A stretch of DNA of 63,936 nt, the filler included, from an uncultured Methanosarcinales archaeon (GTDB lineage Archaea; Nanobdellota; Nanobdellia; Woesearchaeales; CAYXTQ01), in NCBI GenBank assembly GCA_964608065.1. It is 3 parts of 3 records of this genome, joined end to end, with 100 filler letters (N's around TTAATTAATTAA, not from the genome) between each part and the next. Parts side by side here need not be neighbours in the genome. Positions count along the whole stretch, not along the records: positions 28,732 to 56,371 come from CAZSMA010000007.1; 2 more parts are not named here. The stretch is one strand, 5' to 3'. A program made the position numbers and the translations under genes. The notes under the pieces were generated by a model that searched no databases, was not told the origin of the DNA, and worked only from the letters and a program-made list of their open reading frames with translations. This document shows positions 24,973 to 49,267 of this stretch, piece by piece; positions within the stretch are counted from its first letter, which is position 1, and each line of letters begins with the position of its first letter.

Positions 24973-25784
24973 TTTATAATCAAACTCATGTCCAAAACAT
25001 GAGAGTTTTTAGTCAATGAACCTAATGAGATGAGATCAACAAACTGATATTTTTTGATGTCTTTTACACCTGAAGCTTCAAAAATCATATTTTTAGGAAG
25101 CAATTTAATTGTTTTTTTTATTTCGTTTGGAGACATATTGTCAAACATTATTGCTTTTGGTTTATATTTGGCAAATTTTAATGCTTGCTTTAGGTTAGTT
25201 ATTTCAATTATTGCATTTTTACAAGGTTTTGAGTATTTTAAATGATTTTCTTTGATTAGAATTTCATCACTTAGGTTTAACCTATGTGTTAAAGCTCCTC
25301 CAATATAAGCTGCTTTTTTATCAAGTAAAGGATAAATCGTTTTTCTTGTTGATGCAATCCTTGTTTTTGATTTTTTAACAATATTATTTGTAAAAGTTGC
25401 TATTCCTGACATTCTTTGTAAAATATTTAATATTGTTCTTTCAAGTTTTAATATTGTTTTAATATCTCCTTTTAATGCTATGATTATTTCATTATTTTTT
25501 ACTTTGCTTTTATCTTTTTTAGATATTATTTTTATATTATGTTTTTTTAATAAATATGTTATTTCTTCGATACCAGCCAGAATTCCTGGTTGTTTTGCAA
25601 TTATCACTGCTTTTACTGTTTTGTTTTTTAATAATTTATTAGAAGTTATATCTCCTTTGGAAATATCTGTTGTTAGTAATAAGTTGAATAGATTTTCTAA
25701 GAAATCTCTGTAAGATTTGTTCTTTACAGTAAGTAAATGACTTTTATCATAAATTTTTTTTATCCTATCATCCTTTGAAGGCAT
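24969..25784 (-). CDS. nadC: Quinolinate phosphoribosyltransferase
   Basis: ERTILNILQRMSGIAT, TRKT, HRLNLSD..LIKENH, FDN, EASG. Confidence 0.92.
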   Translation of the reverse strand: MPSKDDRIKKIYDKSHLLTVKNKSYRDFLENLFNLLLTTDISKGDITSNKLLKNKTVKAVIIAKQPGILAGIEEITYLLKKHNIKIISKKDKSKVKNNEIIIALKGDIKTILKLERTILNILQRMSGIATFTNNIVKKSKTRIASTRKTIYPLLDKKAAYIGGALTHRLNLSDEILIKENHLKYSKPCKNAIIEITNLKQALKFAKYKPKAIMFDNMSPNEIKKTIKLLPKNMIFEASGVKDIKKYQFVDLISLGSLTKNSHVLDMSLIIK

Positions 25785-26652
25785 TTTCTTGCTTTATCTG
25801 CTGTTTGTTTTGGAACATCAACTTCAAATTGTTCATTTTTTAGAGCTTCATAAACATTCTCTAAATTAATTTTCTTCATATTAACACAAATACCTGCTGC
25901 CCTATAAAACTTTTTGTTTGGAACTTCAATTTCTAAACGGTTACACATACCTTCTTCTGTCACTATAATAAATTCATTTGCAGGATTATTTTTTGCATAT
26001 TTTATCATTCCACCAGTTCCTGTGATATGGTCTGCTAGTTTTAAAACTTCAGGAGGACATTCAGGGTGCGCAACTATTTTTGCATCTGGATGAAGAGATT
26101 TAGCTTTCTTTATATTTTTTGATAAAACTTTATCATGTACATAACAATAGCCCTCCATTGTTATTATTTTTTTTTTTTTATTTTTTTTTGTAGATATTCC
26201 CCCATGTTTTTGTCTGGAAGGAAAATAATTTCTTTATTTGGCAAAGAGTTTGCAATATCAATGAAATTCATGCTTGTACAGCATATATCAGACATTGCTT
26301 TTGTTTCTGCGTTTGTGTTAATGTAAGACATTACTGCAGCTCTAGGATGATTTTGTTTTAGTTCTCTTAATTCATCTAAGTTGACCATTGCAGCCATTGG
26401 ACAGTTTGCTTGTTTACTTGGGATTAAAACTTTTTTTTTAGGACTAAGTATTTTAGCTGATTCTGCCATAAAATCAACACCGCAAAAAACAATAATATCA
26501 GCAGTAGTTTCAGCAGCCTTTTTTGATAAATCTAAAGAATCGCCTATAAAATCAGCTACTTCGTAGATCTCTTTTCTTTGGTAATTATGAGCTAATATAA
26601 CTGCGTTCTTTTCTCTCTTTAGTTTATTAATTTCCTGTATTAAATCCCCCAT
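25760..26652 (-). CDS. nadA: Quinolinate synthase, frameshifted in a poly-A run at about 26160-26190 (ORFs 26164-26652 and 25760-26158)
   Basis: LAHNYQ, FCGVDFMAE, CPMA, YINT in the first part; GYCYVH, AHPEC, C..MKK in the second. Confidence 0.9.
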
Positions 26653-27518: not shown

Positions 27519-28463
27519 CTACTTTTTTTTGTCTAGCTTTTTCTTTAATTCTTTATATTCTTTCATATACAGATTGATAGTTGGCTTTAAATCACGATAT
27601 TTTTCATATGCCTGCAGCGCATCATAGTATTCAACCCTGTTCTTGAAATCAATATTCACAGGAGGCAATTTGTGTTTGATAAGGATATTATTTTGAAGTA
27701 TCCTGCCTACTCTGCCGTTTCCGTCAGCAAATGGATGAATATTTTCGAATTGATTGTGAACCACTGCTGCTAAAACAAGTCCAGGGTATTTTATCTTATT
27801 CTTTTCATACCATTCTACTAATCGCCTAAGCAAATGGGCAATTCTTGCTTGTGGAGCTCCTTCATGGACAATGTTCCCTCTGCTATCCAGGACTACAACA
27901 TCCTCTTTCTTTTTTCTTAATTTTCCTGCAAACGTTTTTGAATTTTTAAAGACAATCTTGTGTATATTCTTTATTAGTCCTACTGATACGTGCTCTTTTG
28001 TTTTTCTGATAAAGGATATTGCTTCGTCAACTCCAAAAGCTTCAGCTATATCTTCTTTTGATCTATTAGGCCATTTATCTTTTTCTAATAAGTATTTTAC
28101 CTCAACCTGGTTAAGTTTGCTTCCTTCAATGGCATTTGTGTTATAGGTGAATATTTTTGAGAATTCCTTCCATTCTCTTTCTGAAAGGTGGGCTATCTTA
28201 ATCGGTATTTTTGCCTCTATATCCCTTATCCTTTTTATCTCTTCTTTTGAAAGTTCAAAATGCAACGGGTCTGAGATTATATTGTATTTATGGATTTCTT
28301 CTAATATAAGCTTTTCAGCGATGGCCTTTCTTTCTTCAAGGATTTTATTATTTATATCCTGGCCTAAGTATTTCCTGAACTTATGGACTTTTAAGCCTTC
28401 CCTGTATGAATGAGCAAGAAAATACTTAATTCTTTCTCCGACTTTCCTTTTTTCTATGTGCAT
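27519..28463 (-). CDS. Fic-family AMPylase with N-terminal inhibitory motif
   Basis: HPFADGNGRVGR active motif; TNAIEG (S/T)xxxE(G/N) motif. Confidence 0.92.
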   Translation of the reverse strand: MHIEKRKVGERIKYFLAHSYREGLKVHKFRKYLGQDINNKILEERKAIAEKLILEEIHKYNIISDPLHFELSKEEIKRIRDIEAKIPIKIAHLSEREWKEFSKIFTYNTNAIEGSKLNQVEVKYLLEKDKWPNRSKEDIAEAFGVDEAISFIRKTKEHVSVGLIKNIHKIVFKNSKTFAGKLRKKKEDVVVLDSRGNIVHEGAPQARIAHLLRRLVEWYEKNKIKYPGLVLAAVVHNQFENIHPFADGNGRVGRILQNNILIKHKLPPVNIDFKNRVEYYDALQAYEKYRDLKPTINLYMKEYKELKKKLDKKK

Positions 28464-31275: not shown

Positions 31276-34200
31276 CTATTTAGCTCTCTGTGCAACATAT
31301 GCTAAAGAAATTTTATCTCCAACATTAAGTTTTGTATTTAATGGGGATTTTATTTCATTTACAAAAACCTCAAGCCTCAAATTATTTCCTAGTTTTTCCA
31401 CAGCATCCGGGGCATATTGTGGTAACTCTGCTAATTCTTCTTGGTTTGTTTTTGGATTGATTGAATATTCTCTTTTTATCTTTAACTCATCGCTACTTGG
31501 TTTATCAAATATATGCTCAAGAAACTCTTTTACAGTTTTTCCTTTATTTTTATCTTTCTGTATTTCAACATCTGGGAATATTATACCTTTTAAAGGATTA
31601 CTATCATCTATTTCCACTCTTTTATTTTTTTCATGAAGTAAATTATAAAGTGGTTTCAAAACTCCATTACATGGATACCTTGACTCTGATACTTTATTGT
31701 GGAATTCAGAGTATCTTGCACCTTGGCATGGGTAGTTCTTTATTATCTCAGTTAGTTCATCTTTATGAAATTCAAAATAACGTGAACCTTTACATTGGTA
31801 TTTTTTGCTTGGATCAGAACTCTCATCTTGGTGGAATTCATTAAATCTAGAACCTCCACAAAGATACGATTTGTGAACTATTTTTATTTCCTTTCCTTTA
31901 TATTGTTCAAATAGATTTCCATCCAGTATTGTATCTAAACTCAATCCAGTATCAACAAAATAGCAAAACTGATTTGCAACAAAAACCTTTGTCTGATAAT
32001 GTTCTCCAAGCATTTCTTTTAGCTCTTGTTCGTTTTTTTTTTTTACATTTGCAGTTATATCTCCAAATGATTTGCCTTTATATTCTTCAGTTATTTGATT
32101 TTGCCATACTGGAACACCATCATGACCTGTATCAGCATTCTCATCTTTATAGTCTCCTTGAGTCACATTGAGAACTTCAACATTAATGTCTTTGGTTAAA
32201 TCACTATACTGACCATCTAAGAGTGGATTTTCTTTTCCAGATTCCCACGCTACTTCTTTTCCATTTATCTTTATAATTAAACCATCTTTTTTTCTAGCTT
32301 CATAGTCTTTTAAGTCTATAATCAAACCATCAACCCATTTACCATTTGTCCAGTCAGTATAGCCTTGTCTTACCTCTACATCAAAACCTTTTTCTTTCAA
32401 AACATGATGAACATAATTAAAAATAGAGTCTGATTTTATATCCCTTTTACCAATTTTCCCTGTTTTATTATCAATATACTCCATAATAGTTGTAGGCTTA
32501 TTATAAATTCCCTTAAAGCCCTTTAAAACACTTTCATCTATTTTTTCATTGTGCCATACCTCATAACCTTCCCCAACTTCCAAAGGTTTATAATCAGTCT
32601 TAAATTCTATTTCTTTAATTACTTCTTCTATAGTTTCTGCTTTATTATTTGTTTCTTCTTTTTTTTGTGTCAGTGCTTTTACAGCACTTACAGCACCCAT
32701 TCCAATACCAGCAAAAAGACCTGCTAATCCTAAACCTGCTACCTGGCCAAAAGTTATATCTTTATTTTGAGCATCATAATGTTCATTAGCTTTTTCACCA
32801 ATATTAGTATCTTCTATAGTCTTTTTATCATATTTTTCAACCTTTTCTTCTAATTCTGTTTTCTTTGTTGAAGACTCTTCTTGTACATTATTATCTTCAG
32901 TTACTGCTCTTCTCTCAATCTCTTTCTCATAATGTTCATTAGAAGACTCTTCTTCAATAGCTTTTTTTTCTTTTTTATACCTTGACTCAGCTCTTTCTTC
33001 TGTAATATCGCTAATTTCCATTCCCCTTATAACTTGATTCCTAAAAACAGACGGATTAATAACACTTAATTTAGCCCTTGATATTAAATTTTCAAGTGGA
33101 TAACTTTGTCCTAAAGTATCAGATGAGATTAATGAGAGATCTGCTTTATATGGCTTAGCTTCATCAGAATATAACACTTTCTTTAAATCTTTAATATCAT
33201 ATTTAACACCTTCGTGTTGATAAGGTTTTACTTCAAAATCATTGAATTTAATAACAAAATCAAGATTTGATTGTGAAACTAATTCTTTATAATCTGCATT
33301 AAGTCCTGCTTCAATAAAAACAGATGGTTTTATAGTATGATCAACATTTGAGTCGGATAGTTGATTGTTTTTTATTTCATCTAATCTATATTCGATTTTT
33401 GGAGTTTCTTTTGATTCAATTCTGTATTCTTTTATTATGTTGTTGTTATGTGCTGTTTTTATTTGATGAGGAAGAGCAGAATTAGTTTTTTTAATTGAAT
33501 ATTCTTGTTTTACAACAGGATTAACTTTAATTTGTTTAATTTCAGTATAATCATCTAATGTAGGAACAAATGTTTTTACCTCGATTTTGTAATCATTTTT
33601 TTTTACTTCATAAACATTAGGTCTTGAACTATATTCACTTAATTTTGAGTGGGTTTTTAATCTTTTTTCTACATTATTAGTAATATGATATAGTGGTTGC
33701 TCCTCTAAATAGTAATCATGTCTGCTGGAGTTCAAGTATAAATTTGATAAATCTGTGAAACTTAAGGCAGTATATTTTACTTCTAGATGTTCTTCATATC
33801 TTAAGCTATTTATTCCAAAACCCTCATAACCTAATCCAGCATAATTTATATCATATGTAAATATTCCTGCATAACTACCCTCATCTAAAACACCATATTT
33901 AGAATATGTTATCCCTTTATCTTTGAATAAGTGATTTTGTTTTAGTAATGATAAGATAGGAGTATAATTTATATCATTTACCATACCCTTATTTGAAATT
34001 GATTTAAAAGGTATTATTGATAGATAACTTAAAACTAAATCATCAGAATTTGCATAACTTTTACCTTCATCATAAAATTGAGATAATATTTTTTTTTCCA
34101 GACCACCTGAAGGAGCACTATGAGCTATTATTCTTGTTTCCAAATTAACATTATTATTATCTATGTTGCTATACCAGCGTGACTGAGCAACATTCTTTAT

Positions 34201-34359
34201 TCTGTCTTCTGTTACTGGCTTTCTAAATCCCTGGCCTCCGTCAGAAAATACAAAGTTACCTTCTTGGTTATTAGCTACAACAGGTCTAAACAAGAAAAAA
34301 GATTTATGATCTCTTCCACTTATTAATGAATTTTGACTATTATCTATAACACTTATCAT
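31276..34359 (-). CDS. Large hypothetical protein (1027 aa) with central hydrophobic segment, YxCxGxR(F/Y)xEFH repeats and beta-grasp-like C-terminus
   Basis: Long open ORF heading the ECF operon; repeats read directly from the translation. Confidence 0.75.
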   Translation of the reverse strand: MISVIDNSQNSLISGRDHKSFFLFRPVVANNQEGNFVFSDGGQGFRKPVTEDRIKNVAQSRWYSNIDNNNVNLETRIIAHSAPSGGLEKKILSQFYDEGKSYANSDDLVLSYLSIIPFKSISNKGMVNDINYTPILSLLKQNHLFKDKGITYSKYGVLDEGSYAGIFTYDINYAGLGYEGFGINSLRYEEHLEVKYTALSFTDLSNLYLNSSRHDYYLEEQPLYHITNNVEKRLKTHSKLSEYSSRPNVYEVKKNDYKIEVKTFVPTLDDYTEIKQIKVNPVVKQEYSIKKTNSALPHQIKTAHNNNIIKEYRIESKETPKIEYRLDEIKNNQLSDSNVDHTIKPSVFIEAGLNADYKELVSQSNLDFVIKFNDFEVKPYQHEGVKYDIKDLKKVLYSDEAKPYKADLSLISSDTLGQSYPLENLISRAKLSVINPSVFRNQVIRGMEISDITEERAESRYKKEKKAIEEESSNEHYEKEIERRAVTEDNNVQEESSTKKTELEEKVEKYDKKTIEDTNIGEKANEHYDAQNKDITFGQVAGLGLAGLFAGIGMGAVSAVKALTQKKEETNNKAETIEEVIKEIEFKTDYKPLEVGEGYEVWHNEKIDESVLKGFKGIYNKPTTIMEYIDNKTGKIGKRDIKSDSIFNYVHHVLKEKGFDVEVRQGYTDWTNGKWVDGLIIDLKDYEARKKDGLIIKINGKEVAWESGKENPLLDGQYSDLTKDINVEVLNVTQGDYKDENADTGHDGVPVWQNQITEEYKGKSFGDITANVKKKNEQELKEMLGEHYQTKVFVANQFCYFVDTGLSLDTILDGNLFEQYKGKEIKIVHKSYLCGGSRFNEFHQDESSDPSKKYQCKGSRYFEFHKDELTEIIKNYPCQGARYSEFHNKVSESRYPCNGVLKPLYNLLHEKNKRVEIDDSNPLKGIIFPDVEIQKDKNKGKTVKEFLEHIFDKPSSDELKIKREYSINPKTNQEELAELPQYAPDAVEKLGNNLRLEVFVNEIKSPLNTKLNVGDKISLAYVAQRAK

Positions 34360-38387: not shown

Positions 38388-41300
38388 TTATATCTTCCAA
38401 TCCTGATTTTCACCTGATTTTAACCAATAACCTTTTCCTTCACTCATATTATCTAAATTATTAAAAGAACCATTAGTGTCATAAACTAACCATTTATCTT
38501 CATCAGTGTAATATGTGAAAACCTTGGTTGGTGTTGTTAAATCACTAATAGCTTCTGGAAGATTACCTATTGACATATTATAACCAATTAAATTCCAACC
38601 TGTCTTTAACGGAACCGTATAATCTTTTACAACAGTTCCTTCTACAGTTAATGTTTGATCTATTTCAGATTTTAACCAATAAGCATTTCCATAATCCATA
38701 GTGTGTAAAGTATTCAACCATATTTTATTACTATCATAAACATACCATGTATTGTTTGAAGTATTATAGTACCATACAACAACCTGCCCTGATAAACCAT
38801 TGGTTATATTTTCAATTGAAGAGTTTAGTGGTTGTATAGGTAAGCTGATTAGGTTTTGGCCTTGGAATAAGTTTATGTTATAATCATTAAAGCATAAAGG
38901 GGAATTATATTCTATTTCATAAGCACAACCCTCAGTAGTAACCTCTTGACCATTAGATGTATAAGGTTCAGTTGGTTCTGGGTTTAGTATTGCATTTTGT
39001 GTATCTGAATCACCTGTAGAGTATCTTCTTGCGTAAGTTATTGTATTACTAAAACAAACACCTATATCATCTCCATCCTGAACTATAGGGTAATTATCAG
39101 AAGTCCTGCTAATTTCTTGTATTGGATCTTCACAAGCACTAATTATTGCTCCGTTTGTTTTTCCATAACCCTCTAACGCACCATTTCCATCCAAATCAAG
39201 GGCTATCCAAGCACCTAAGTTATCTGTTGTTACTCCGTTTTTATAATTATAGCCATTTCCCTGTACAACATTAGTCCTAAATATAACCTTGGGTTCACAT
39301 GAAGGATTATAATACAGTATCCCCTTACTACAATATTCTGCACAAACAACACTGCCACATGTTATTGACGGCCATTCATCAATTTCACCATCACAGTCAT
39401 CATCAATACCGTTATAGTAATCTTCTTCTTGACCAGAGTTTACATTTACATTACTATCATCACAATCAATGTCAGAATTGTAACCATCATTATCATAGTC
39501 ATTAGGATATTGATCGCAAACATCACCTAGACCATCTCCATCTGAATCTATTTGATCAGGATTAGAATCATAAACACAATTATCTTCCGAATCTCTAATT
39601 CCATCTAAATCCATATCACTAAACATAGAAATTTTATTTGCAGAATGTCTAGCATCTCCATGGAAATAATTCTTCTTCCCAGTAGGAGAAAGCACCGCTA
39701 TCCTATTACCAAGCGCATCATAAGTATAATTCTTCTGTTTATTTCCAGAATAAACTAATCTATCTAACTTATCATAATTAAGATTAGCATTAACACCATT
39801 TACACTATCAACAATACTTATTATGTTTCCTTTATTATCATAATTATAATCTAAATCTTGTTCATTGCTTGTTTTTATTTCACTAATCCTACTCATCAAA
39901 GGATCATAAGTATAATCAGATCTTAAACTATTTTGATAAAATAATTGAGTTGGCTTACTAAATTGATTATAATTTATATCATTCAATAAATTTGAAACAG
40001 AACCAATTAATCCTTGTGTAGTATATTGATAAGAAACAACTGAGTTGTCTGGAATTTTTTCATCTGTGATTCTATCCATAGCATCATATGTCCACTCAAT
40101 TGTAAATGTTTTTCCGTCTATACTAAAATCTTCCTTGGTTTTTCTAAGTCTATCATCATAGTTGTAATCAATTGCGATTCCAGGTGCAGTTATTTTTGTT
40201 AATGTTCCTTTAACACCATCATAATAATAGTAAATAACTTGTTGAGTGCTGCTTTTACTTTTTATTCTATTTAATTCATCATACTGTATTGAAACAACAT
40301 CCCCTTTACTGCTAGTTTGCGAGATTAAGTTATTGTTTTTATCATATGAATATTGCCATGTTCCTAAATCTGAATCTATCTCACTAAGCTTTCTGCTAAG
40401 TGTATCGTAAGTGTATTCTATAGTGTTACCGTAAGGATCATTTATCTGGATGATATTTCCTAAAGCATCATAAGTGTATTTAGTTTCAAAGTAGTTAGTT
40501 TTCAAGTATTCAACGATTTTGACAATCTGATCAAAAGCATCAACAAAAAATACTTTTTTATTGTTGTTCTCATCATAAACTGTGATTTTCCAATGGTCAA
40601 AATCAATAATCCTATCTGTATTGTCAGGATTAATTACTTCAATTATTCTTGATAAAGCATCATAGTTATATTTAGTGTTGCTTACAGATTGACTTGGATT
40701 TGCATATCCAGAACTGGCTGAAACAAAGTAAGGGTTGCTTTGCCTAATTAACCTATCTAAATCATCATAGTAAAAGTCAACTTCTATTTGTTGTGAGTCT
40801 TCTGCTTCGTTTTTTATTTGAATTAGATTTCCAAAACCCTCATAATAATAATACGAGTCAAAAGTATTTGAATTTCCGCTTGCTTCCCTCTGAGAAATTT
40901 TTATATTTTCAGGAGGATTTCCATCAATTGAATAAGTATATTCTTTAGTAGGGTATGATATACTATCATAAGGTAAAATTTCTTTTTTTATCCTACCAAA
41001 AACATCATAAGTGTACTCTATTAAGTTACCATTAGCATCAGTTTCTGATATTAAATTACCTGTTCCCAAATAATATCTGTAGTTGAAAATATGGTTTTTT
41101 GGGTTAGTTGTTCTTTCATTAAAAGTATAAGTTATGTCAGTAATACAATAATTATACTGTATAACATATCCTTCTGGATATGTTTCTTCAATTAAATTTC
41201 CATATGCATCATAATCATATTGATAAACCGGATTAGAGCCTATATTTAACCAATGCTCTTCCCATGTTAAGTCCCCTTTTGTAGGTGGGGAACCATATGC

Positions 41301-43952
41301 AAGATTATCATATCTATAAAAAATTTCTTTCTTTTTTGTTGAACTAGCATCGTATAAAGAATATGTTTTTGGTTTATCTACAATCCAACTATTTGAATTA
41401 TAAACATACTGCCATTGTTCATATATTTCATCACCGCTTACACTACTATCTCCTAGGTCATTTACAGATATTACATTTCCATAATTATCGTAGCTGTACT
41501 CTTTCCTTGTACTTTTAGGGTCTGTGTTATAACCATCATACAAATAATAATCTTCAGAAGAGAGTTCTACTATACTGTAACCATTGGAAGTTGAACTTAT
41601 CCAAGTTGATTCAGTTTTTTCAAATGGGTTTGAACTCGAATCAAATAGCTCTGTTTTAAATTCCTTACCTTTTTTACCATCATCTTGGTAAAACCAATGA
41701 TTAACTAAAGATATATCTGACAATATCTCTTGAACAAAATTAAAACCTCTAAATTCTTTATCATCATAGTCGTATAATCCTTTGAAGTAGTTATAATTAG
41801 TATCTCCAATTATATTATGAGAGCCAGGCATGTTGTTATTATCAGTTGTTGTATCTACCAGCCACATATTAAAGCCAATTTGAGAGACCCCGTCATCATC
41901 TGAATTATCCAAATCAGTTGATTTTTCATAATTTATTGTAGTCTTGCCTCCAAATTCATTTGTAATTGATTTTAATAGGTAAGCTTTTGAAGCTTTATTA
42001 ATCCAAGTTGTTCTTATACTAGAAGTTTTAGCTCTTATTAAATCAGGCAAACCATCACCATTAACATCAGCTACTCTAACACCTTTGTTATCTCCATCAT
42101 CTGCTGTTACAAAATCAGCTAATTCTGGAATTTCCCAATCTGTATCTTCACCCCATCCTTGTCCGTTGTTAATCCATGTTCTTTGGTCACTCCCTTCTCC
42201 TTTCAAAATATCAACTAATCCATCTCCATTGACGTCTGCTAATCTAACGCCTTCATCCTCACCTGCTACTACAAAAATTGCAGATAATGGAATAGCATAA
42301 GTATTATCTAGTACCCAACCACTGCCTGTGTTAATCCATGTATTTCTGTTTTCTCCATTAATAAGGTCTGGTAATCCATCACCGTTCAAATCAGCTACTC
42401 TTCCTCCTTCATCTTTAGGGTTTGTGTTAGAACTTACAAATTCAACATCTAAAGGAGGAGTATACGAACTATCATCCATCCATCCACTGCCAGTATTAAT
42501 CATTGCATCTTGATCACCACTTACACTTTTCAAAATATCAATTAACCCATCACTGTTAAAATCAACTAGTCTGACTCCTTTATCATAATTCCCATCATCA
42601 ACGTCAATAATCTGCTTTGCCATTGGAAGGTTCCATGAACTATCGTCTTGACTCCATGCAACACCATCACTAGTATAAGCATCTCTATCTGCTGTTAAAG
42701 GGCCGTCTGCCTTTAAAATATCAACAAAACCATCACCATTCAAATCAACAAACCTAGTTCCAGCGTCATCATTATCCAAATCTACAGTTTTACAAGGCAA
42801 GTTCCAGGAATTGTCTAATGTCCACCCATTACCATTATTGGTCCATGCTTTTCTATTATAATTATCTGATTTTGAGATATCTAAAAGCCCATCCCTATTA
42901 AAGTCTACAAACCTTACCCCATAATCCCTTGTACCACCAAAATACGCGTCAGATGGTATAACCCATGTTGAGTCTTCAGTCCATCCTTTTGATACATCAT
43001 TATATTCAAAATTAGTTGAAGGCAGAGTTGAAGTTCCATCAGTTCCATAAATTGTAATTGATGAAAGAAAACTTTTTGTGTTTGTGTCTAAAGTAATATA
43101 ATTAAGAACGTATTTTCTTACTAAGTTATTATTTGCTTTAATCTGAATTTCTTTTATTCTTCTAGCTTCTCTTATTTTATTTCCTTGCTCATAAACTAAC
43201 CATTTATCTGGTCTGTCTGAACCTTCAAGGATAAATTCTATTACTCTACTTTTTTCATTGTTATATTCTATTTTATAAGGATATGATGTACCTATATCAT
43301 TTGCATTAGGATCTTCCCTATAACTATAATAAATTTCATTATTGTGTGTGTCCTTTATTAGATCTAAACTCCATCTTGTTGCATAGTTATGAAGATTTGA
43401 GACTAATTCTGAATCTTGATTATAACCAAATCTATATTGAATTCCATCTTTAGTTTTAACAATCCAATATTCGTTTAGTTGGTTGTTTCCTCCAGATATT
43501 TTTGTGATGTGCAAATAAGATTCAATTTTAGTATGATACTTATTTTCAGATGGAACATAAACTAGCTCATATGATTGACCATTTAATACTAATCTTAATT
43601 TATCATCAGATGTATCTGCAAAAGAATAATCAACATCTCTCCAAATATAATTTTGTGTTAAATCCCAAGCAGTTCCTAAAATAGAAGGCCTTTGCTTTGT
43701 TAAATGACTGTTATAGTTTAAAGACAAGTAAGGTTGTAAACTGTTCCTACCAGGAGGAACTTCTATGTCAAAAGTATAAGTAGCAGCCCCAGGCCATAGT
43801 TCTGTTTGATAACTACCATGTAGATTTAGCTCAGGATGTTCTGGAACCTTAGGATTATGTATATAAGGCCTGTAGTTGTTTGTCGCATAAGTAAAACTAG
43901 CTAGATAAATGAAAATTATAATCCATATTCCGATTAGTTTTGTTTTTTTCAC
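38388..43952 (-). CDS. Secreted TcB-like Rhs shell protein: SpvB-like N-terminus, FG-GAP repeats, YD repeats, TSP3/Ca-binding and Cys-rich C-terminal domains; no Rhs core
   Basis: Signal peptide; PPGRNSLQPYLSLNYNS; repeated D(F/L/V)NGDGLxD; EFRGF; YDxxGN repeats; DxDxDGxxDxxDNC; NGIDDDCDGEIDE; GWNLIG. Confidence 0.9.
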   Translation of the reverse strand: MKKTKLIGIWIIIFIYLASFTYATNNYRPYIHNPKVPEHPELNLHGSYQTELWPGAATYTFDIEVPPGRNSLQPYLSLNYNSHLTKQRPSILGTAWDLTQNYIWRDVDYSFADTSDDKLRLVLNGQSYELVYVPSENKYHTKIESYLHITKISGGNNQLNEYWIVKTKDGIQYRFGYNQDSELVSNLHNYATRWSLDLIKDTHNNEIYYSYREDPNANDIGTSYPYKIEYNNEKSRVIEFILEGSDRPDKWLVYEQGNKIREARRIKEIQIKANNNLVRKYVLNYITLDTNTKSFLSSITIYGTDGTSTLPSTNFEYNDVSKGWTEDSTWVIPSDAYFGGTRDYGVRFVDFNRDGLLDISKSDNYNRKAWTNNGNGWTLDNSWNLPCKTVDLDNDDAGTRFVDLNGDGFVDILKADGPLTADRDAYTSDGVAWSQDDSSWNLPMAKQIIDVDDGNYDKGVRLVDFNSDGLIDILKSVSGDQDAMINTGSGWMDDSSYTPPLDVEFVSSNTNPKDEGGRVADLNGDGLPDLINGENRNTWINTGSGWVLDNTYAIPLSAIFVVAGEDEGVRLADVNGDGLVDILKGEGSDQRTWINNGQGWGEDTDWEIPELADFVTADDGDNKGVRVADVNGDGLPDLIRAKTSSIRTTWINKASKAYLLKSITNEFGGKTTINYEKSTDLDNSDDDGVSQIGFNMWLVDTTTDNNNMPGSHNIIGDTNYNYFKGLYDYDDKEFRGFNFVQEILSDISLVNHWFYQDDGKKGKEFKTELFDSSSNPFEKTESTWISSTSNGYSIVELSSEDYYLYDGYNTDPKSTRKEYSYDNYGNVISVNDLGDSSVSGDEIYEQWQYVYNSNSWIVDKPKTYSLYDASSTKKKEIFYRYDNLAYGSPPTKGDLTWEEHWLNIGSNPVYQYDYDAYGNLIEETYPEGYVIQYNYCITDITYTFNERTTNPKNHIFNYRYYLGTGNLISETDANGNLIEYTYDVFGRIKKEILPYDSISYPTKEYTYSIDGNPPENIKISQREASGNSNTFDSYYYYEGFGNLIQIKNEAEDSQQIEVDFYYDDLDRLIRQSNPYFVSASSGYANPSQSVSNTKYNYDALSRIIEVINPDNTDRIIDFDHWKITVYDENNNKKVFFVDAFDQIVKIVEYLKTNYFETKYTYDALGNIIQINDPYGNTIEYTYDTLSRKLSEIDSDLGTWQYSYDKNNNLISQTSSKGDVVSIQYDELNRIKSKSSTQQVIYYYYDGVKGTLTKITAPGIAIDYNYDDRLRKTKEDFSIDGKTFTIEWTYDAMDRITDEKIPDNSVVSYQYTTQGLIGSVSNLLNDINYNQFSKPTQLFYQNSLRSDYTYDPLMSRISEIKTSNEQDLDYNYDNKGNIISIVDSVNGVNANLNYDKLDRLVYSGNKQKNYTYDALGNRIAVLSPTGKKNYFHGDARHSANKISMFSDMDLDGIRDSEDNCVYDSNPDQIDSDGDGLGDVCDQYPNDYDNDGYNSDIDCDDSNVNVNSGQEEDYYNGIDDDCDGEIDEWPSITCGSVVCAEYCSKGILYYNPSCEPKVIFRTNVVQGNGYNYKNGVTTDNLGAWIALDLDGNGALEGYGKTNGAIISACEDPIQEISRTSDNYPIVQDGDDIGVCFSNTITYARRYSTGDSDTQNAILNPEPTEPYTSNGQEVTTEGCAYEIEYNSPLCFNDYNINLFQGQNLISLPIQPLNSSIENITNGLSGQVVVWYYNTSNNTWYVYDSNKIWLNTLHTMDYGNAYWLKSEIDQTLTVEGTVVKDYTVPLKTGWNLIGYNMSIGNLPEAISDLTTPTKVFTYYTDEDKWLVYDTNGSFNNLDNMSEGKGYWLKSGENQDWKI

Positions 43953-43972
43953 TTTGTTTTATTTTTTTAATA

Positions 43973-44380
43973 TTATATAGTACTATTTTTTTTAGATTGA
44001 TTAATGTAATCTTCAACTGCTTCGTTAAACCTTTTTTTGTTAAAATCTTCAATACCATCAAGATTTTCTGGAATTTTTCTCTCTCTTAAAAAATCTTGAA
44101 TTTTTTTCATTTCAAGATGAATTTCCCACTTTTGATTCTTTTTATATATCTCGTAATCCTTTAAAAAATTAGGAGTAACAACTATCTCATCATCTGAAAA
44201 TTTAACATACCCTATTGATAATAATTTTTTCAAAGCAATATTAAATTCTTGATAGGTCATTATTGCATGATTTATATAATCACAAAAAAAAATTATGTCA
44301 TTAAGTGTATGTTTCTCACTATAGTAAATTGCTTGTAATACCCACGCATCTTGCCAACAAATTTTTTCAGTTTTTTTCAT
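43973..44380 (-). CDS. Hypothetical protein, putative immunity protein
   Basis: Small ORF in the toxin cassette array; DYINHAIMTYQE. Confidence 0.6.
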   Translation of the reverse strand: MKKTEKICWQDAWVLQAIYYSEKHTLNDIIFFCDYINHAIMTYQEFNIALKKLLSIGYVKFSDDEIVVTPNFLKDYEIYKKNQKWEIHLEMKKIQDFLRERKIPENLDGIEDFNKKRFNEAVEDYINQSKKNSTI

Positions 44381-44403
44381 TTTGATTTTTCTTTCTCAAT
44401 AAC

Positions 44404-44877
44404 CTATTTATTTTTAGAGTTTGAACGTTCTTTTTGAATTTGATCCACCTTGTTCAATATTGAAAAATCCCCACCGATAACCTCTATACAGCCTTGTTTA
44501 ATTGCATCTGCATAATTTAATAGAATCTTTTTAATTTGAGAATCGTCTTCCAAGAGGATATCCAGTGGAGGATTATACATTTTAAAGGCAGGATTTTTAA
44601 TTAAAACTATATCACCTACTTCGTATTTTGATGATATTAATTCTGATTTCTTAAACTCAATTAACTTAAAAAGATAAATGAAAATTCCTCCATCTCTCGG
44701 TATATAAGAAATTTTAAGTAATACAAATTGATTCTGATATATCAATGTAGTTCCATAAATATCATTTTTGACATCTTTAATTTTAAATCCATGTTCTAAC
44801 TCTAAAAATTTAAAAATTTTTTTACAAGAAGATATAAAAAAATCTTCTGAACTTTGTTTTTTTGTTTTTTTATTCAT
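44404..44877 (-). CDS. Putative immunity protein for the 44874-45653 toxin
   Basis: Overlaps toxin stop (ATGA); FKFLELEHGF pattern common in immunity proteins. Confidence 0.6.
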   Translation of the reverse strand: MNKKTKKQSSEDFFISSCKKIFKFLELEHGFKIKDVKNDIYGTTLIYQNQFVLLKISYIPRDGGIFIYLFKLIEFKKSELISSKYEVGDIVLIKNPAFKMYNPPLDILLEDDSQIKKILLNYADAIKQGCIEVIGGDFSILNKVDQIQKERSNSKNK

Positions 44878-45653
44878 TTTTTTGGTAACCTCTTATAATT
44901 TATATCTTTTCCAGATTTAATCCATTCATCTATTACTTCTTTTTCTGCTTGGTAAAATGGGCCTCTTCCTTTTCCGATCGGTCTACTTGGATCAATCCCA
45001 TAATCAATAATTTCATAACCTTCATTAAGTTTATTTTTCAACCATTTTTTATTGTTATCAATTGATTTGTCTAAACCTATATCTTTAACTTTATTTTTTG
45101 GTTTATACCATTTTGCTCCAATCTCTTTTGCTTTTTTAATAATCCTATCTGTTGTCTCACCAATAATTATTCTTTTCTTTTTGATTTTACCTATAACTTT
45201 CCCAGCTTTCTTAGCAATCTTACCCTCAGGAACACCGGGAGTTGAAAGATCCCATATACCCATGCCTACCCAAAACAAGTTTCCAGCACTTGGGTCTTCG
45301 AATCCAGTTTGAATATCATTAATAGATTGATCTGCAAAATATGCACTAACATAAGGCATCCAATAAGGTGAGGTTGTTGCTGCTAGAGTAACTGCACCAA
45401 CACACAATCCCCCACATATAATATTCCCACTAGGATCAGTATAAGTATAAGGATTATTTCTCTCAAAAGCATATCTATTTAATAACTGTGGATCATAAAT
45501 ATTCTGAATTATTGAATCAGGCTGAATGAAAGCAAGTAAATTTTTAGGAGTATGGATATCAAAGTTTAGATTAATTGCAAAAACATTTGGAAATATAATT
45601 AATGAAATTAATAGAATACTTAAAGTTCTGTTTAGGTATTTATTCATCTTCAT
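44874..45653 (-). CDS. Signal peptide fused to truncated Rhs core and C-terminal toxin domain
   Basis: Signal peptide, FIQPD..DPQLLNRYAFERNNPYTYTDPSG, then a CT with IGETTDRI..NKKWL..GYEIIDYG..FYQAE. Confidence 0.8.
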   Translation of the reverse strand: MKMNKYLNRTLSILLISLIIFPNVFAINLNFDIHTPKNLLAFIQPDSIIQNIYDPQLLNRYAFERNNPYTYTDPSGNIICGGLCVGAVTLAATTSPYWMPYVSAYFADQSINDIQTGFEDPSAGNLFWVGMGIWDLSTPGVPEGKIAKKAGKVIGKIKKKRIIIGETTDRIIKKAKEIGAKWYKPKNKVKDIGLDKSIDNNKKWLKNKLNEGYEIIDYGIDPSRPIGKGRGPFYQAEKEVIDEWIKSGKDINYKRLPKK

Positions 45654-45985
45654 ATTTTAACAATCTCATGTAAAATATTAATCATTTTTTTTGCAAAAAA
45701 TTCTAATTCTTTCTTTGCTTTTTCTTCTTCTTCTGTTTTAGGAATTATTTTATTTACTAAAGAACTGAGCTTGGTTTCAGTCAAGTCCAAATATCTTTTG
45801 ATATTTTTTAATTCTTCATCCGATAATTTGTTCTGCAGAAAAAGTCTTTCCCATTTAAGGTAGTCTAATGAAAAATCCATTCTTACAAAATCTTCTGCCT
45901 CATCTATTTCTTTACTTAATTCAGTCATAGGGGGTTTATATTCCTTGAATTCTTTAATCATTTTTTTTATTTTTTCTTCATCCAT
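45650..45985 (-). CDS. Putative immunity protein for the 45993-48566 toxin
   Basis: GAGGTGA SD overlapping toxin stop; small charged helical ORF. Confidence 0.6.
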   Translation of the reverse strand: MDEEKIKKMIKEFKEYKPPMTELSKEIDEAEDFVRMDFSLDYLKWERLFLQNKLSDEELKNIKRYLDLTETKLSSLVNKIIPKTEEEEKAKKELEFFAKKMINILHEIVKI

Positions 45986-45992
45986 TTTTAAA

Positions 45993-48566
45993 TCACCTCG
46001 GATTATGATAACTATATAATTTATTTTCCGCATCTACTACTACATATCTATAAGTTAATTTATCACTAACTGCAAAACCAGGTATTGATCTTGAATTTGA
46101 TGTTGCAATCCCCTCTAATCTTGGACCAACGTGAGTGTATTTTGATTTAAACCCTTGTTTTCCCAAATTGCCCTTAAACTTATTAGCTTCAACAGTAAAC
46201 CTATAAGGATTATATCCTTTCGGATTTGTACGCTTAAAATGGTCGTCTAGATTATATTCGCTTGCCCAACTACTCTTAACATAAGCACTCTTAAACCCTC
46301 TAACAGCCCCTGCTGTTGCACCACCTATAACTAAATCTGTTCCAATAGAAGTAGGATTCAATAAGTTTTCACTCCATTCCTGGCCATAAATAACATTGCT
46401 TGTTATTGTTGCTGCTCTTCCTCCTGCTACTGAAGATGCCATACCTAATCCAACTTCAGAAGCTAAGCTTAATCCAGCTCCTCCAGCAACTAAATTTCCT
46501 ACTCCTAATGTTAATCCAGCAACTCCACCTGATACAGCTCCTATTGCTGCACTCTTGCCAACACTACCCCAATTTACTGTTCCTGTTTGATAATATTGTG
46601 TTGCAGCTGATATTCCGCCGCCTATTAATCCTCCGATTGCAGCTCCAATCCCTGCTGTTATTAATGTTGGGCTTTCACCGCTTGGATCAACATACTTATA
46701 TGGGTTATTCCTAACATAAGAATATCTGTTTAAATCCTGTGGGTTATAGATATTAGGAATGTTTTGATCAGGCTGGATAAAAGATAATAGATTATTGCTG
46801 TCATAATACCTAGCACCATAATAATATAGATTACTAGAATCTAACTCTTTAGAATTATACAAGTATCTTTCACCACTATCATCAATTATTTCACCAAAAT
46901 CTTCATAACTCAGATCTTCAACAACATTTCCACTTGAATCAGTAACTAATCTTGTACTTCCTAGATGATCAGGATGGAAGAATAAAGTGTTTCCATTTGC
47001 ATCTTCCTTTCCAACTAATTTATCATATAAATAATAATATTTCTCTGTGTAAGTTCCAGAACTATTCTCTATCTGAATGTAATTTCCAACATAATATACA
47101 GTTTCATCTCCACCATCTTTATGATTTATTTTTTTTACTCTGTTTCCATTATGATCATAAATGTATTCTTCAATTAAAGAACCAGTTGAGCTGTCTTTTA
47201 CATTAATTAATTGGTTAAATCTATCATAATCATAGCTCAAACCAAAACCAGAAATCAGATTACCATTAGCATCGTATTCTAAATCATAAGAAGGTGTTCC
47301 ATCATCCAGCCAGCAAGTATCTGTTATTGAATCATAAGTATAGCCTGTTTTACAACCACTACTTGAACTTGCAGAACTCTTACAAGAAACAGAATTTAAA
47401 CAATTCAGATTATAAGGGCAGTCATAAGGATCATTTCTTTGGCATATTCCTGAATCACAAGTTCTTTCAGGCTGTAATATATACCCTGAACAGCTTTGAG
47501 CTAAGCAAACAATCTCATTACAAGCTTTATCATAATCTATTTGATAATTATTATCAGGACAACTTGAACTTGAACCAGTACACATATCTTCATAAGCAAT
47601 ACCTTGACACGATGATGAACTAGTGCATGTTGGATTATGAGCTGATTTACAAACATGACCAGCAGCTCTAAAATATCCGTCAGAATCACAGCAAGGCTCA
47701 GTAGGATTACATTCTGGCCAATATACACACTGTTGATTATTATATGATTTTATTGTATTATATTCATCTATATACATATATAATGTCTGAGATCTAAAAT
47801 GGATATAATCTATATAAGGAGACTCTGAATCATCTCCAGATTGAACATTACAGAAATCATAAAAGTTATTGCAAGAAAAACCATTTTCAAGATCAGCATC
47901 AAAATCTAGTTTTAAAGAGGTTGGATGGTCATAGCAGTCGGTGTCACAATTAGCATTAAAACTGTCACAAGCATTTTGATCAGGAGCGCAATAAAGATAA
48001 TTAGTGTTTGAAAAACTATCAGCATCATTAAAATTATTTCCATCCTCATTACAACTGTCAATCCAAACACCACCACGATTTGAAAGAAATTCACTAGTTT
48101 CTCCACTACAATATTTATCTTGGTGGTCATACCATCTACTCCCATCATAGGATTCCCAATAAAGAGCTATACCTGAGTCAAAATTATATGTTGAACTATA
48201 TCCATCTATATCACTTCCTGAAATAAAATCATTTATATTACTATGTCTAAATATATAACATTTACTTGTGTCTGTTGGAGTATAAGTTCCCATGCCCATT
48301 CCATAACTAGATGAATCTACATTATCTTCTTCTTCATCAGGCAAATAATTAACTTTTGTGTAAACTGTAGTGTATTGATCAGAACAAGTGCTTATTGAGC
48401 ATGTTTTTATGCATATTCCGTTATTACAATCAGTACCTTCATTACGATAACCCGTAGGACAACTATTAGGTTCACATGAACCAATAGGAAGGGAATAAGC
48501 TATAGCTGTACAAATAATTAAAATAAGAATGATTACAATAAATTTGATTTTTTTTCCTTTTATCAT
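45993..48566 (-). CDS. Secreted Cys-rich protein with Rhs-associated core and C-terminal toxin (TcC-like)
   Basis: Signal peptide; disintegrin-like Cys-rich region; HPDHLGSTR, YYYGARYYD, NRYSYVRNNPYKYVDPSG; Gly-rich linker; CT with LDDHFKR. Confidence 0.88.
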   Translation of the reverse strand: MIKGKKIKFIVIILILIICTAIAYSLPIGSCEPNSCPTGYRNEGTDCNNGICIKTCSISTCSDQYTTVYTKVNYLPDEEEDNVDSSSYGMGMGTYTPTDTSKCYIFRHSNINDFISGSDIDGYSSTYNFDSGIALYWESYDGSRWYDHQDKYCSGETSEFLSNRGGVWIDSCNEDGNNFNDADSFSNTNYLYCAPDQNACDSFNANCDTDCYDHPTSLKLDFDADLENGFSCNNFYDFCNVQSGDDSESPYIDYIHFRSQTLYMYIDEYNTIKSYNNQQCVYWPECNPTEPCCDSDGYFRAAGHVCKSAHNPTCTSSSSCQGIAYEDMCTGSSSSCPDNNYQIDYDKACNEIVCLAQSCSGYILQPERTCDSGICQRNDPYDCPYNLNCLNSVSCKSSASSSSGCKTGYTYDSITDTCWLDDGTPSYDLEYDANGNLISGFGLSYDYDRFNQLINVKDSSTGSLIEEYIYDHNGNRVKKINHKDGGDETVYYVGNYIQIENSSGTYTEKYYYLYDKLVGKEDANGNTLFFHPDHLGSTRLVTDSSGNVVEDLSYEDFGEIIDDSGERYLYNSKELDSSNLYYYGARYYDSNNLLSFIQPDQNIPNIYNPQDLNRYSYVRNNPYKYVDPSGESPTLITAGIGAAIGGLIGGGISAATQYYQTGTVNWGSVGKSAAIGAVSGGVAGLTLGVGNLVAGGAGLSLASEVGLGMASSVAGGRAATITSNVIYGQEWSENLLNPTSIGTDLVIGGATAGAVRGFKSAYVKSSWASEYNLDDHFKRTNPKGYNPYRFTVEANKFKGNLGKQGFKSKYTHVGPRLEGIATSNSRSIPGFAVSDKLTYRYVVVDAENKLYSYHNPR

Positions 48567-48568
48567 TG

Positions 48569-49267
48569 TTATTTTTTTGACTCAATAAGTATTGATTTAT
48601 TCTTGGAATCATCAGTAACTTTCCATTTGTAAAAACCATTATCATAAACTAAGCTAACCATTAAATCTTTAGAATGAAATTCACTGTCTTGTTTTTTTGC
48701 CTTTGAAATTGCTTCTTCTTTGTTTATTAAGTATTTACACTCTTTTCTTGGCCCTATGTATCCTAGAATTTTCCCATTTTCATCTAACTTTACCTTTATT
48801 CTTTTTCCATAAGTAATTCTTTTTCCTTCTTCTTTTTCATAAGTTAACTCTAAATTATAAACAACATAATATTTTACGCCCCCTTTGTCAGGCTTATCAA
48901 AAATTATAACTTTTTTAAATTCAATGCTCTTGTTGAAGTAATCTTCACTAACAAAAGACTTAATATGATTATCAGAAGTATCAATTATTTTCTTAGGTGA
49001 TGCTTCTTTGGATTTTTTAATAATATACTTAACTAGAGAGTTAGTTATTAAAGAATTTACTCCATTAATTGCATTATCAGCTAATAACCCTTTTGTTTCA
49101 TCAATACTAAAAGCATTAACAAACAATCCAGATAAAACTAGTAAGAGTAGGACGGAAATAAATTTAATCTTGCTACCCCTAGTTCTCAAAATTTTATATA
49201 AGGGTTCCACCAAAAAATTATAGAAATATCTAAGGGACATGAAGTTATGTTTGTTCATAACTTTCAT
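48569..49267 (-). CDS. Membrane/secreted hypothetical protein, first gene of the Rhs operon
   Basis: Hydrophobic segment, PepSY-like INKEEAISKAK C-terminus; 2 nt from the next gene. Confidence 0.65.
   Translation of the reverse strand: MKVMNKHNFMSLRYFYNFLVEPLYKILRTRGSKIKFISVLLLLVLSGLFVNAFSIDETKGLLADNAINGVNSLITNSLVKYIIKKSKEASPKKIIDTSDNHIKSFVSEDYFNKSIEFKKVIIFDKPDKGGVKYYVVYNLELTYEKEEGKRITYGKRIKVKLDENGKILGYIGPRKECKYLINKEEAISKAKKQDSEFHSKDLMVSLVYDNGFYKWKVTDDSKNKSILIESKK

Follow-up and report, generated by a model that had tools for sequence, protein, structure and literature searches.

A probably two-chain, Sec-exported YD-shell (Rhs-type) toxin system in a Woesearchaeales archaeon and its relatives

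The gene row studied here lies on the minus strand, from position 49267 to 38388, of a 63,936-nucleotide (nt) stretch of DNA (the window) that joins three parts of the assembly GCA_964608065.1, from an uncultured archaeon of the lineage Woesearchaeales. The row most probably encodes a polymorphic toxin of the YD-shell (Rhs, TcB/TcC-like) type that lacks TcA, is exported through the Sec pathway, and has its toxin-enclosing cocoon encoded in two chains. Domain matches assign an SpvB part, a predicted six-blade propeller, and most of the YD shell to the larger protein, P0001, and the last ~130 amino acids (aa) of YD sequence, the Rhs core, and a 23-kDa basic tip to the smaller one, P0002. Separate shell and core-toxin genes had been proposed in an earlier reading of the DNA made without database searches (the sequence-only reading), and the open reading frames (ORFs) are as it described them: 38388..43952 (-) for P0001, the putative shell subunit of 1,854 aa, and 45993..48566 (-) for P0002, the putative closure-and-cargo subunit of 857 aa. 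Because natural fusions, a fixed break point, and a colinear mapping onto solved shells all point the same way, the two proteins appear to be complementary parts of one YD cocoon, a conclusion drawn by comparison and not from a structure of the pair. Because the split is conserved across related loci, it is not a mis-assembly or a one-off rearrangement; it is the commonest form among them.

P0001 starts with a signal-peptide-like N terminus (KKTK, a hydrophobic stretch, then TYA), and an SpvB domain (PF03534) follows at residues 55 to 222. The SpvB match was obtained by scanning the N terminus alone (E = 6.6e-11; 42.4 bits, the cut-off being 22) and is not listed in the Pfam scan of the whole protein. 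Pfam further matches FG-GAP_3, TcdB_toxin_midN (residues 623 to 744), and RHS_repeat, with no match to TcdB_toxin_midC, and six blade motifs of the form G.R..D.N.DG..D between residues 345 and 637 predict a six-blade FG-GAP propeller. The YD/RHS repeats end at about residue 1440, and neither Pfam, NCBIfam, nor a comparison with the core of P0002 finds an Rhs core in P0001. The Pfam and NCBIfam scans agree with the domains and with the stop before the core given in the sequence-only reading. Extra domains start after the motif HSANKI (nt 39630 to 39647): TSP3 calcium-binding repeats at residues 1446 to 1531 (COMP, 3fby, E = 7e-13), a MopE-like motif after them, nine cysteines between residues 1441 and 1620, and a tandem 84-aa terminal module at residues 1694 to 1854 (window 38391 to 38885, minus strand) with the motif GWNLI... 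GYWLK, all in keeping with the regions first described there.

The terminal module, which has no Pfam or NCBIfam name, has 3,408 relatives at E <= 0.001 among 1.84 billion representatives. Among the 149 relatives listed, the window's own protein excluded, it stands at the extreme C terminus in 111 and just behind the N terminus in 24. A Pfam scan of 40 of the 150 listed matches found it joined to beta-helix, papain-type protease, PLD, cohesin, Hcp, M23, fn3, and other domains, one of the bearers being an Hcp fusion (P0149). Because the module is attached to very different secreted proteins, mostly at their extreme C terminus, it is best read from these comparisons as a general tail of secreted or surface proteins. 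The idea that it is typical of the toxin family was rejected, with no match to it in the ORFs of the 55 related loci described below and a shell-like protein in 1 of the 149 module-bearing representatives.

P0002 likewise has a signal-peptide-like N terminus. All 34 of its cysteines lie within residues 27 to 423, the remainder having none, and this half of the protein had been called disintegrin-like. That label did not survive: there is no disintegrin match in Pfam at E <= 5 or in NCBIfam at E <= 1, and no PDB chain below E = 0.49; nor does the domain match any named family in Pfam, NCBIfam, or PDB sequences. Kinship between the cysteine-containing regions of P0001 and P0002 was also considered and rejected (BLAST E > 0.6). 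The last YD strands occupy residues 424 to 553, with YDANGN at nt 47259 to 47276, and Rhs_assc_core (TIGR03696, E = 1.4e-13) covers residues 554 to 630, ending in DPSG at exactly the nt 46677 to 46688 given before. Five core positions are kept across partner proteins (H531, R586, D600, D627, and G630), of which we take D600 and D627 to be the aspartate pair of the autoprotease, as in Tc and Rhs proteins. Beyond DPSG runs a 227-aa tail, composed of a Gly-rich, glycine-zipper-like stretch (residues ~631 to 760) and the extreme tip (760 to 857). The first ~130 residues of this tail are 80% small or aliphatic, with 29 glycines and G...G...G motifs, and a Gly-rich stretch after DPSG is common to the homologue P0078 and to proteins of loci L033, L042, L039, and L001, while the extreme tip varies. 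The Cys-rich small-partner class to which P0002 belongs comprises 16 clusters whose tips differ, which bears out the proposal of exchangeable tips.

A survey for the same split point and gene order, suggested along with the original proposal, provided the main comparative evidence. We scanned one genome per species and obtained 55 loci, which come from Woese-, Pace-, Nano-, and Altiarchaeota, Methanosarcinales, Nitrospirota, Thermodesulfobacteriota, Chloroflexota, and others. The tally was made on the 39 loci in which our own ORF calling and hidden Markov models (HMMs) gave a large shell ORF, the remaining 16 being fragments or distant relatives. A separate core gene on the same strand accompanies the shell gene in 24 of the 39, upstream of it, as in the window, in 18 and downstream in 6; the gaps between paired genes are often -19 to 0 nt. 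Another 11 loci have a single chain, and in 4 no core was seen, every one of these being limited by a contig end or carrying a broken ORF. Upstream of the shell gene, two of the four (L003 and L025) have the end of a toxin tip, behind which comes a Barstar ORF in L003 and an ORF similar to P0006 of the window in L025. Among loci with enough context, none has a core-less shell gene without a partner. In the wider sequence collection, P0001 has more than 3,000 relatives at E <= 0.001 among 7,996 candidates scored, and of its best 120 homologues (one being the window's own) a P0002-like core is part of the chain in 25 and missing from it in 95.

The position of the break is fixed. Complete core-less shell ORFs reach state 1437 to 1444 of the 1,444-state shell HMM and then continue for 14 to 2,021 residues, and complete partners start at state 2 or 3 of the 219-state partner HMM, directly after the signal peptide or after an N-terminal extension that is Cys-rich (window, L001, and L004), a LamG domain (L009), or three PKD domains (L030). 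Extra domains at the break, one element of the sequence-only reading, are thus seen in the window and in its relatives alike. Single-chain proteins bridge the same point. In seven single chains of Methanosarcinales the shell and partner HMMs are joined by 19 to 42 aa; other fused forms carry inserts of 76, 101, 171, 428, 501, or 1,528 aa at the break site; and in a compact form with a shorter shell (L008) the two HMMs overlap. The 2,466-aa protein P0078 aligns first to P0001 residues 34 to 1445 (39% identity) and then, after a 540-aa LamG insert, to P0002 residues 424 to 707 (49% identity), and P0021 (locus L006), P0102, P0104, and P0064 have the same fusion layout with gaps of ~79 to 134 aa.

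On solved shells the two proteins map in succession. In 8h8a the P0001 part ends at residue 916 and the partner profile starts at 949 and runs to the shell end at 1151; in 8qja the corresponding positions are 1611 and 1644. In TccC2 the A2 shell profile ends at ~425, the partner profile starts at 477, and residue 463 of P0002 aligns to 474. Similarly, 13 of 52 partners match the teneurin YD-shell profile of Pfam, and only at its positions ~684 to 897 of 909. In a tree of 45 shell parts (careful IQ-TREE run, 687 columns), which is unrooted so that gains and losses of the split are not separable, the fused/split label changes seven times, at least four of the changes being forced by well-supported branches, and all 200 of 200 bootstrap trees need more than one change. 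A FastTree tree of 82 rows and a quick IQ-TREE run also give seven changes. The window groups with P0009, L001, L002, and L004 with full support, within a subclade of 16 rows that are all core-less (FastTree support 100), in accord with the Cys-rich partner domain being common to 16 clusters.

The row itself is compact and comprises seven ORFs, in the order P0003 (232 aa), P0002, P0004, P0005 (259 aa), P0006 (157 aa), P0007 (135 aa), and P0001, with gaps of 2, ~7, -4, -4, 23, and 20 nt (the second counted with P0004 from its ATG at 45985). The start codon of P0002 is two bases past the stop of P0003. The genes between P0002 and P0001 had been described as immunity-like; P0004 and P0006 stand as candidates, and P0005 turned out instead to be a second toxin module. 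P0004 (45650..45985 (-)) has a probable start at the ATG at 45985, giving 111 aa and an isoelectric point (pI) of 5.4, the longest ORF running from 46033; a GAGGTGA sequence overlaps the P0002 stop, and the ATG follows 7 nt further. Neither Pfam nor NCBIfam gives it a family. Its position directly behind P0002 makes it the candidate immunity protein for the P0002 tip, which would protect the producer.

P0005 (44874..45653 (-)) opens with a signal-peptide-like segment, followed by ~40 aa from the end of an Rhs core, with DPSGN, and by a 182-aa tip of 20.3 kDa and pI 9.55. The domain in this tip also ends full partners, one in L023 (30% identity over 195 aa) and P0132 (28% over 180 aa). The core ends of P0002 and P0005 share ~71% DNA identity with no long exact stretch, and at that identity a recent copy of the P0002 core end was rejected as the origin of P0005. 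Orphan core ORFs in L029, L032, L035, and L041 lack a signal-like start, unlike P0005, which may be exported on its own or be a spare cassette. P0006 (44404..44877 (-)) is a candidate immunity protein for the P0005 tip by its position and by one conserved pairing: in L025, a P0006-like ORF (29% identity, E = 7e-15) follows the end of an ORF with a P0005-like tip, directly upstream of the shell gene. P0005 and P0006 are thus a candidate second toxin/immunity pair. P0007 (43973..44380 (-)) has weak Pfam matches and no homologue in the related loci, and it could be a second immunity protein or unrelated.

Both tips of the window are basic (pI 9.5), at 23.3 kDa for P0002 and 20.3 kDa for P0005, and across the loci tips measure at most 266 aa. 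In these properties both window tips fit the rule for Tc cocoon cargo (20 to 35 kDa, pI at least 8) in the available text of PMC6868009. The two tips, P0003, P0004, P0006, and P0007 match nothing above chance in Pfam, NCBIfam, or PDB sequences, save a weak glycine-zipper match on the P0002 tip (E = 0.033) and a weak match on P0003 described below. Named toxin domains do occur at the same place in relatives. Among the orthologues of P0002 these are Ntox28 (E = 3e-21), an LHH nuclease (E = 8.5e-11), and a colicin-E3-like cytotoxic domain (E = 4e-5), and two bacterial partners end in CHAP domains. The contig of L003 begins inside a barnase-type RNase tip (PF00545, E = 7e-14), which is followed by a barstar ORF (PF01337, E = 4e-18) and then the shell gene. 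A small ORF comes after the partner in 12 loci.

Several observations weigh against a two-chain cocoon with matched immunity. Four ORFs separate P0002 from P0001 in the window, whereas the pairs in L001 and L004 abut directly. Contact between the two proteins is inferred from fusions, gene order, and colinearity, and in the last of these, the weakest of the three lines, the YD repeats may slip in register in the alignments to solved shells. Export signals were judged by hydropathy: of the partners with a complete N terminus, 27 of 32 have a hydrophobic stretch there, as do 33 of the 39 shell ORFs, and for the five partners and six shell ORFs without one, a start codon called wrongly or a gene that is broken may be part of the reason. 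Neither P0004 nor P0007 could be placed in a family, and neither tip of the window has a relative with a name: a sequence-atlas search of both stayed below 0.9, and its best score of 0.88 gives leads only. In L001, L004, L015, L019, L026, L027, and L037 the partner gene has no immunity-sized ORF behind it. Finally, we know of no tested precedent for two chains folding together around a cargo outside the cell.

The foremost alternative is that P0001 and P0002 are independent proteins sharing a toxin island, P0001 being an adhesin of the cell surface whose YD shell is open or empty and P0002 a self-contained secreted toxin whose short core serves as a self-cleaving pre-toxin module. The four intervening ORFs would suit this arrangement, as would the export signals and binding-type domains on each protein, the orphan core modules without a shell in L032, L035, and L041, and the existence of P0005 as a core remnant and tip in an ORF of its own. 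However, independent proteins would not be expected to pair on the same strand as regularly as the survey found, often with overlapping stop and start codons, nor to part at a point that is identical in archaea and bacteria and bridged in single-chain relatives. What the core-less protein lacks is the last piece of the shell, and in every case this is precisely what its partner provides; a core-less shell gene without a partner is absent wherever context suffices. We consider independence unlikely on this balance. Much less plausible still is the idea that P0002 and P0005 lie silent as a reserve of cassettes, to be recombined into a main single-chain gene at another place in the genome, and that P0001 has nothing to do with how they are used. 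The end of the core is the usual site of recombination of Rhs cassettes, P0005 retains only that end, and tandem core genes, two to four in number, occur in L011, L016, L020, L022, L041, and L042; but P0002 has a signal peptide, a conserved N-terminal domain of 397 aa, and a start closely coupled to the preceding gene, P0001 has no core for a cassette to recombine into, and the low DNA identity of the two core ends offers no long exact stretch. That the pair is a broken single-chain gene, a mis-assembly, or the product of a recent rearrangement of one Rhs gene can be set aside almost entirely, even though the P0002-like gene of L002 is in two pieces (536 and 251 aa), the shell gene is split in L018, L023, L025, and L035, and at least one homopolymer frameshift (in NadA) occurs elsewhere in the window, for both ORFs are intact with a signal peptide each, the same Cys-rich partner of 800 to 870 aa recurs in L001 and L004 within its 16-cluster class, the row region (38388 to 49267) contains no long exact repeats, and the shell subclade of the window is uniformly core-less.

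If the two-chain reading holds, Sec would carry both chains through the membrane, and their joint folding would take place outside the cell; the core would cut after DPSG, and the tip would remain enclosed. The domains at the break site (the TSP3 repeats and terminal module of P0001 and the Cys-rich domain of P0002) would hold the particle on the surface or bind a target, the Gly-rich stretch might assist entry of the tip into a neighboring cell, and P0004 would shield the producer. A more speculative extension, which we put forward tentatively, is a self-sufficient "BC-only" particle in which the chains co-fold on the archaeal surface to give a cocoon closed around the tip and the domains in the break loop form a receptor-binding head that replaces TcA. 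The FG-GAP gate would open on contact with a host or rival cell, and the glycine-zipper would carry a nuclease-type tip across the target membrane. Episymbiotic DPANN archaea might use such particles against hosts or competitors, with the same design in Methanosarcinales and several bacterial phyla.

The related loci offered further observations on gene content. In L002 (7568 to 9887, Woesearchaeota) the P0002-like gene consists of a 536-aa Cys-rich piece and a 251-aa core/tip piece that overlap by 47 nt, directly upstream of the shell gene. A large secreted subtilase (Peptidase_S8 with CARDB or TSP3) adjoins the toxin pair in L002 (2867 to 7561), L004 (2591 to 7573), and L027 (11283 to 13598); it is directly upstream of the P0002-like gene in L002 and L004, with none at that place in the window, and it may be a processing partner. 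Genes for GspD-like secretins near bacterial split loci (L026, 2855 to 5266 (-); L037, 17114 to 19354) suggest that in diderm hosts the outer membrane is passed by a type II-like route. In L016 (15644 to 22144) and L041 (20101 to 26868), three or four core/tip genes stand in a row downstream of the shell or single-chain gene, two of those in L016 with a signal peptide and two without; these rows look like the toxin cassette arrays of bacterial rhs loci.

The window is archaeal, with an archaeal signal recognition particle RNA at 220 to 514, intron-bearing tRNAs, and genes for topoisomerase VI, RIO kinase, and ABCE1; those relatives of its ABCE1 that carry names belong to Candidatus Woesearchaeota and Nanoarchaeota (66 to 72% identity). 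The G+C content is ~30% across the window, the gene row included. A TATA-like sequence, TTTATATA, lies ~80 nt 5' of the ATG of P0003, and a T-rich stretch is found 3' of the P0001 stop. P0003 (48569..49267 (-)), the first gene of the row, has a membrane-anchor or signal-like segment and a weak DUF7145 match (E = 0.0019); no homologue is present among the ORFs of the 55 related loci, and its membership in the toxin system is doubtful. NadA (quinolinate synthase; 25760 to 26652 (-)) is in two ORFs that cover Pfam positions 1 to 156 and 162 to 294, the break being a frameshift at a long poly-A run (~26165 to 26190) that represents either a homopolymer sequencing or assembly error or a real pseudogene. 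Elsewhere, the window encodes a 1,027-aa ORF with no Pfam match at E <= 1e-4 (31276 to 34359 (-)), which adjoins ECF-transporter-like and DUF4430 genes, a SurA-like parvulin peptidyl-prolyl isomerase with SurA_N and Rotamase domains (8100 to 9635 (+)), and a Fic-domain protein (27519 to 28463 (-)).

YD cocoons are studied as toxin containers and as tools for protein delivery, and a widespread natural split at a fixed loop that tolerates inserts of up to 1,528 aa suggests a permissive site in the YD shell. The arrangement raises the questions of how a cocoon can be filled once its chains have left through Sec and by what means it opens when TcA is lacking. It also provides a candidate, testable toxin/immunity system for DPANN archaea (Woese-, Pace-, and Nanoarchaeota), whose interactions with hosts and rivals are mostly unknown.

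Among described systems, one of the closest is the TcdB/TcaC type of Zhang et al. (2012; PMC3482391). The available text of that paper defines it by a signal peptide, SpvB, an integrin-like propeller, RHS repeats, and variable C-terminal toxins, lists it for Euryarchaeota and many bacteria, and describes such systems as generally absent from most archaea. The single-chain relatives in Methanosarcinales fit the class as defined there, and in the window all of its elements are present, spread over two proteins, with P0004 and P0006 as putative immunity proteins. In that text the class is one polypeptide, whereas the window has its core and toxin on another protein with an export signal of its own, and the range extends to Woese-, Pace-, Nano-, and Altiarchaeota. 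In the portion of the paper available, Song et al. (2021; PMC7861908) screened 1,966 archaeal genomes and reported TcC proteins from bacteria only, using criteria that require a TcA or TcB neighbor and a TcC of 851 to 1,050 aa. Criteria of this kind would miss partners of 400 to 460 aa, and earlier surveys are likely to be incomplete at this point. The class with a single chain and a signal peptide has been in print since 2012, and the split, doubly exported form is apparently undescribed, our literature searches having found no description of a split form with two signal peptides or of DPANN members.

Rhs effectors of type VI secretion systems (T6SS), such as 8h8a, 7q97, 8qja, Tse5, and Tse15, share the YD shell and a C-terminal core with a DPxG site, and their shells are the best PDB sequence matches for the shell of P0001. 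They differ in being single-chain and mounted on VgrG or PAAR, without a signal peptide, SpvB, or an FG-GAP propeller. The absence of TcA and T6SS genes noted in the sequence-only reading was upheld for the window: no TcA, VRP1, or T6SS domain of Pfam is found in the 52 window ORFs scanned (the 7 of the row and 45 others), and no PAAR- or VgrG-binding domain of Pfam in P0001, P0002, or the other window ORFs. According to the available text of PMC13018210, teneurins and bacterial teneurin-like proteins combine a Sec-exported YD shell with domains for adhesion and, at the C terminus, a small toxin that is polymorphic, as proposed here, and 9pt5, an entry of this group, is the best PDB match for the closing piece of P0002 (E = 2.8e-12). 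They are single-chain and, instead of SpvB and FG-GAP, use an FN-plug and an NHL propeller, and the same text makes no mention of archaea.

The analogy with the BC subcomplex of toxin complexes (Tc), represented by TcdB2-TccC3 of Photorhabdus and YenB-YenC2 of Yersinia, had been drawn at the outset, and it applies in part. The chains are not divided where TcB meets TcC. Alignments of the A2 profile to TcdB1 333 to 795 (E = 7e-24), to YenB, and on into TccC2 263 to 425, together with that of the partner to TccC2 474 to 663, place the break at about TccC2 430 to 440, inside TcC. The archaeal small chain would accordingly give ~210 aa of shell, compared with ~680 aa from TcC. The archaeal system also differs in having signal peptides on both chains, extra domains at the break, immunity-like genes, and no TcdB_toxin_midC match, and TcA is absent from the window and from the 24 largest neighbor ORFs of the loci. 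The two systems agree in their overall plan: a cocoon of two chains, here predicted, in which the first 750 residues of P0001 resemble TcB, with SpvB, a putative six-blade propeller, and TcdB-midN, and in which P0002, like TcC, carries an Rhs core followed by a predicted cleavable basic tip of the Tc-type size of 20 to 25 kDa.

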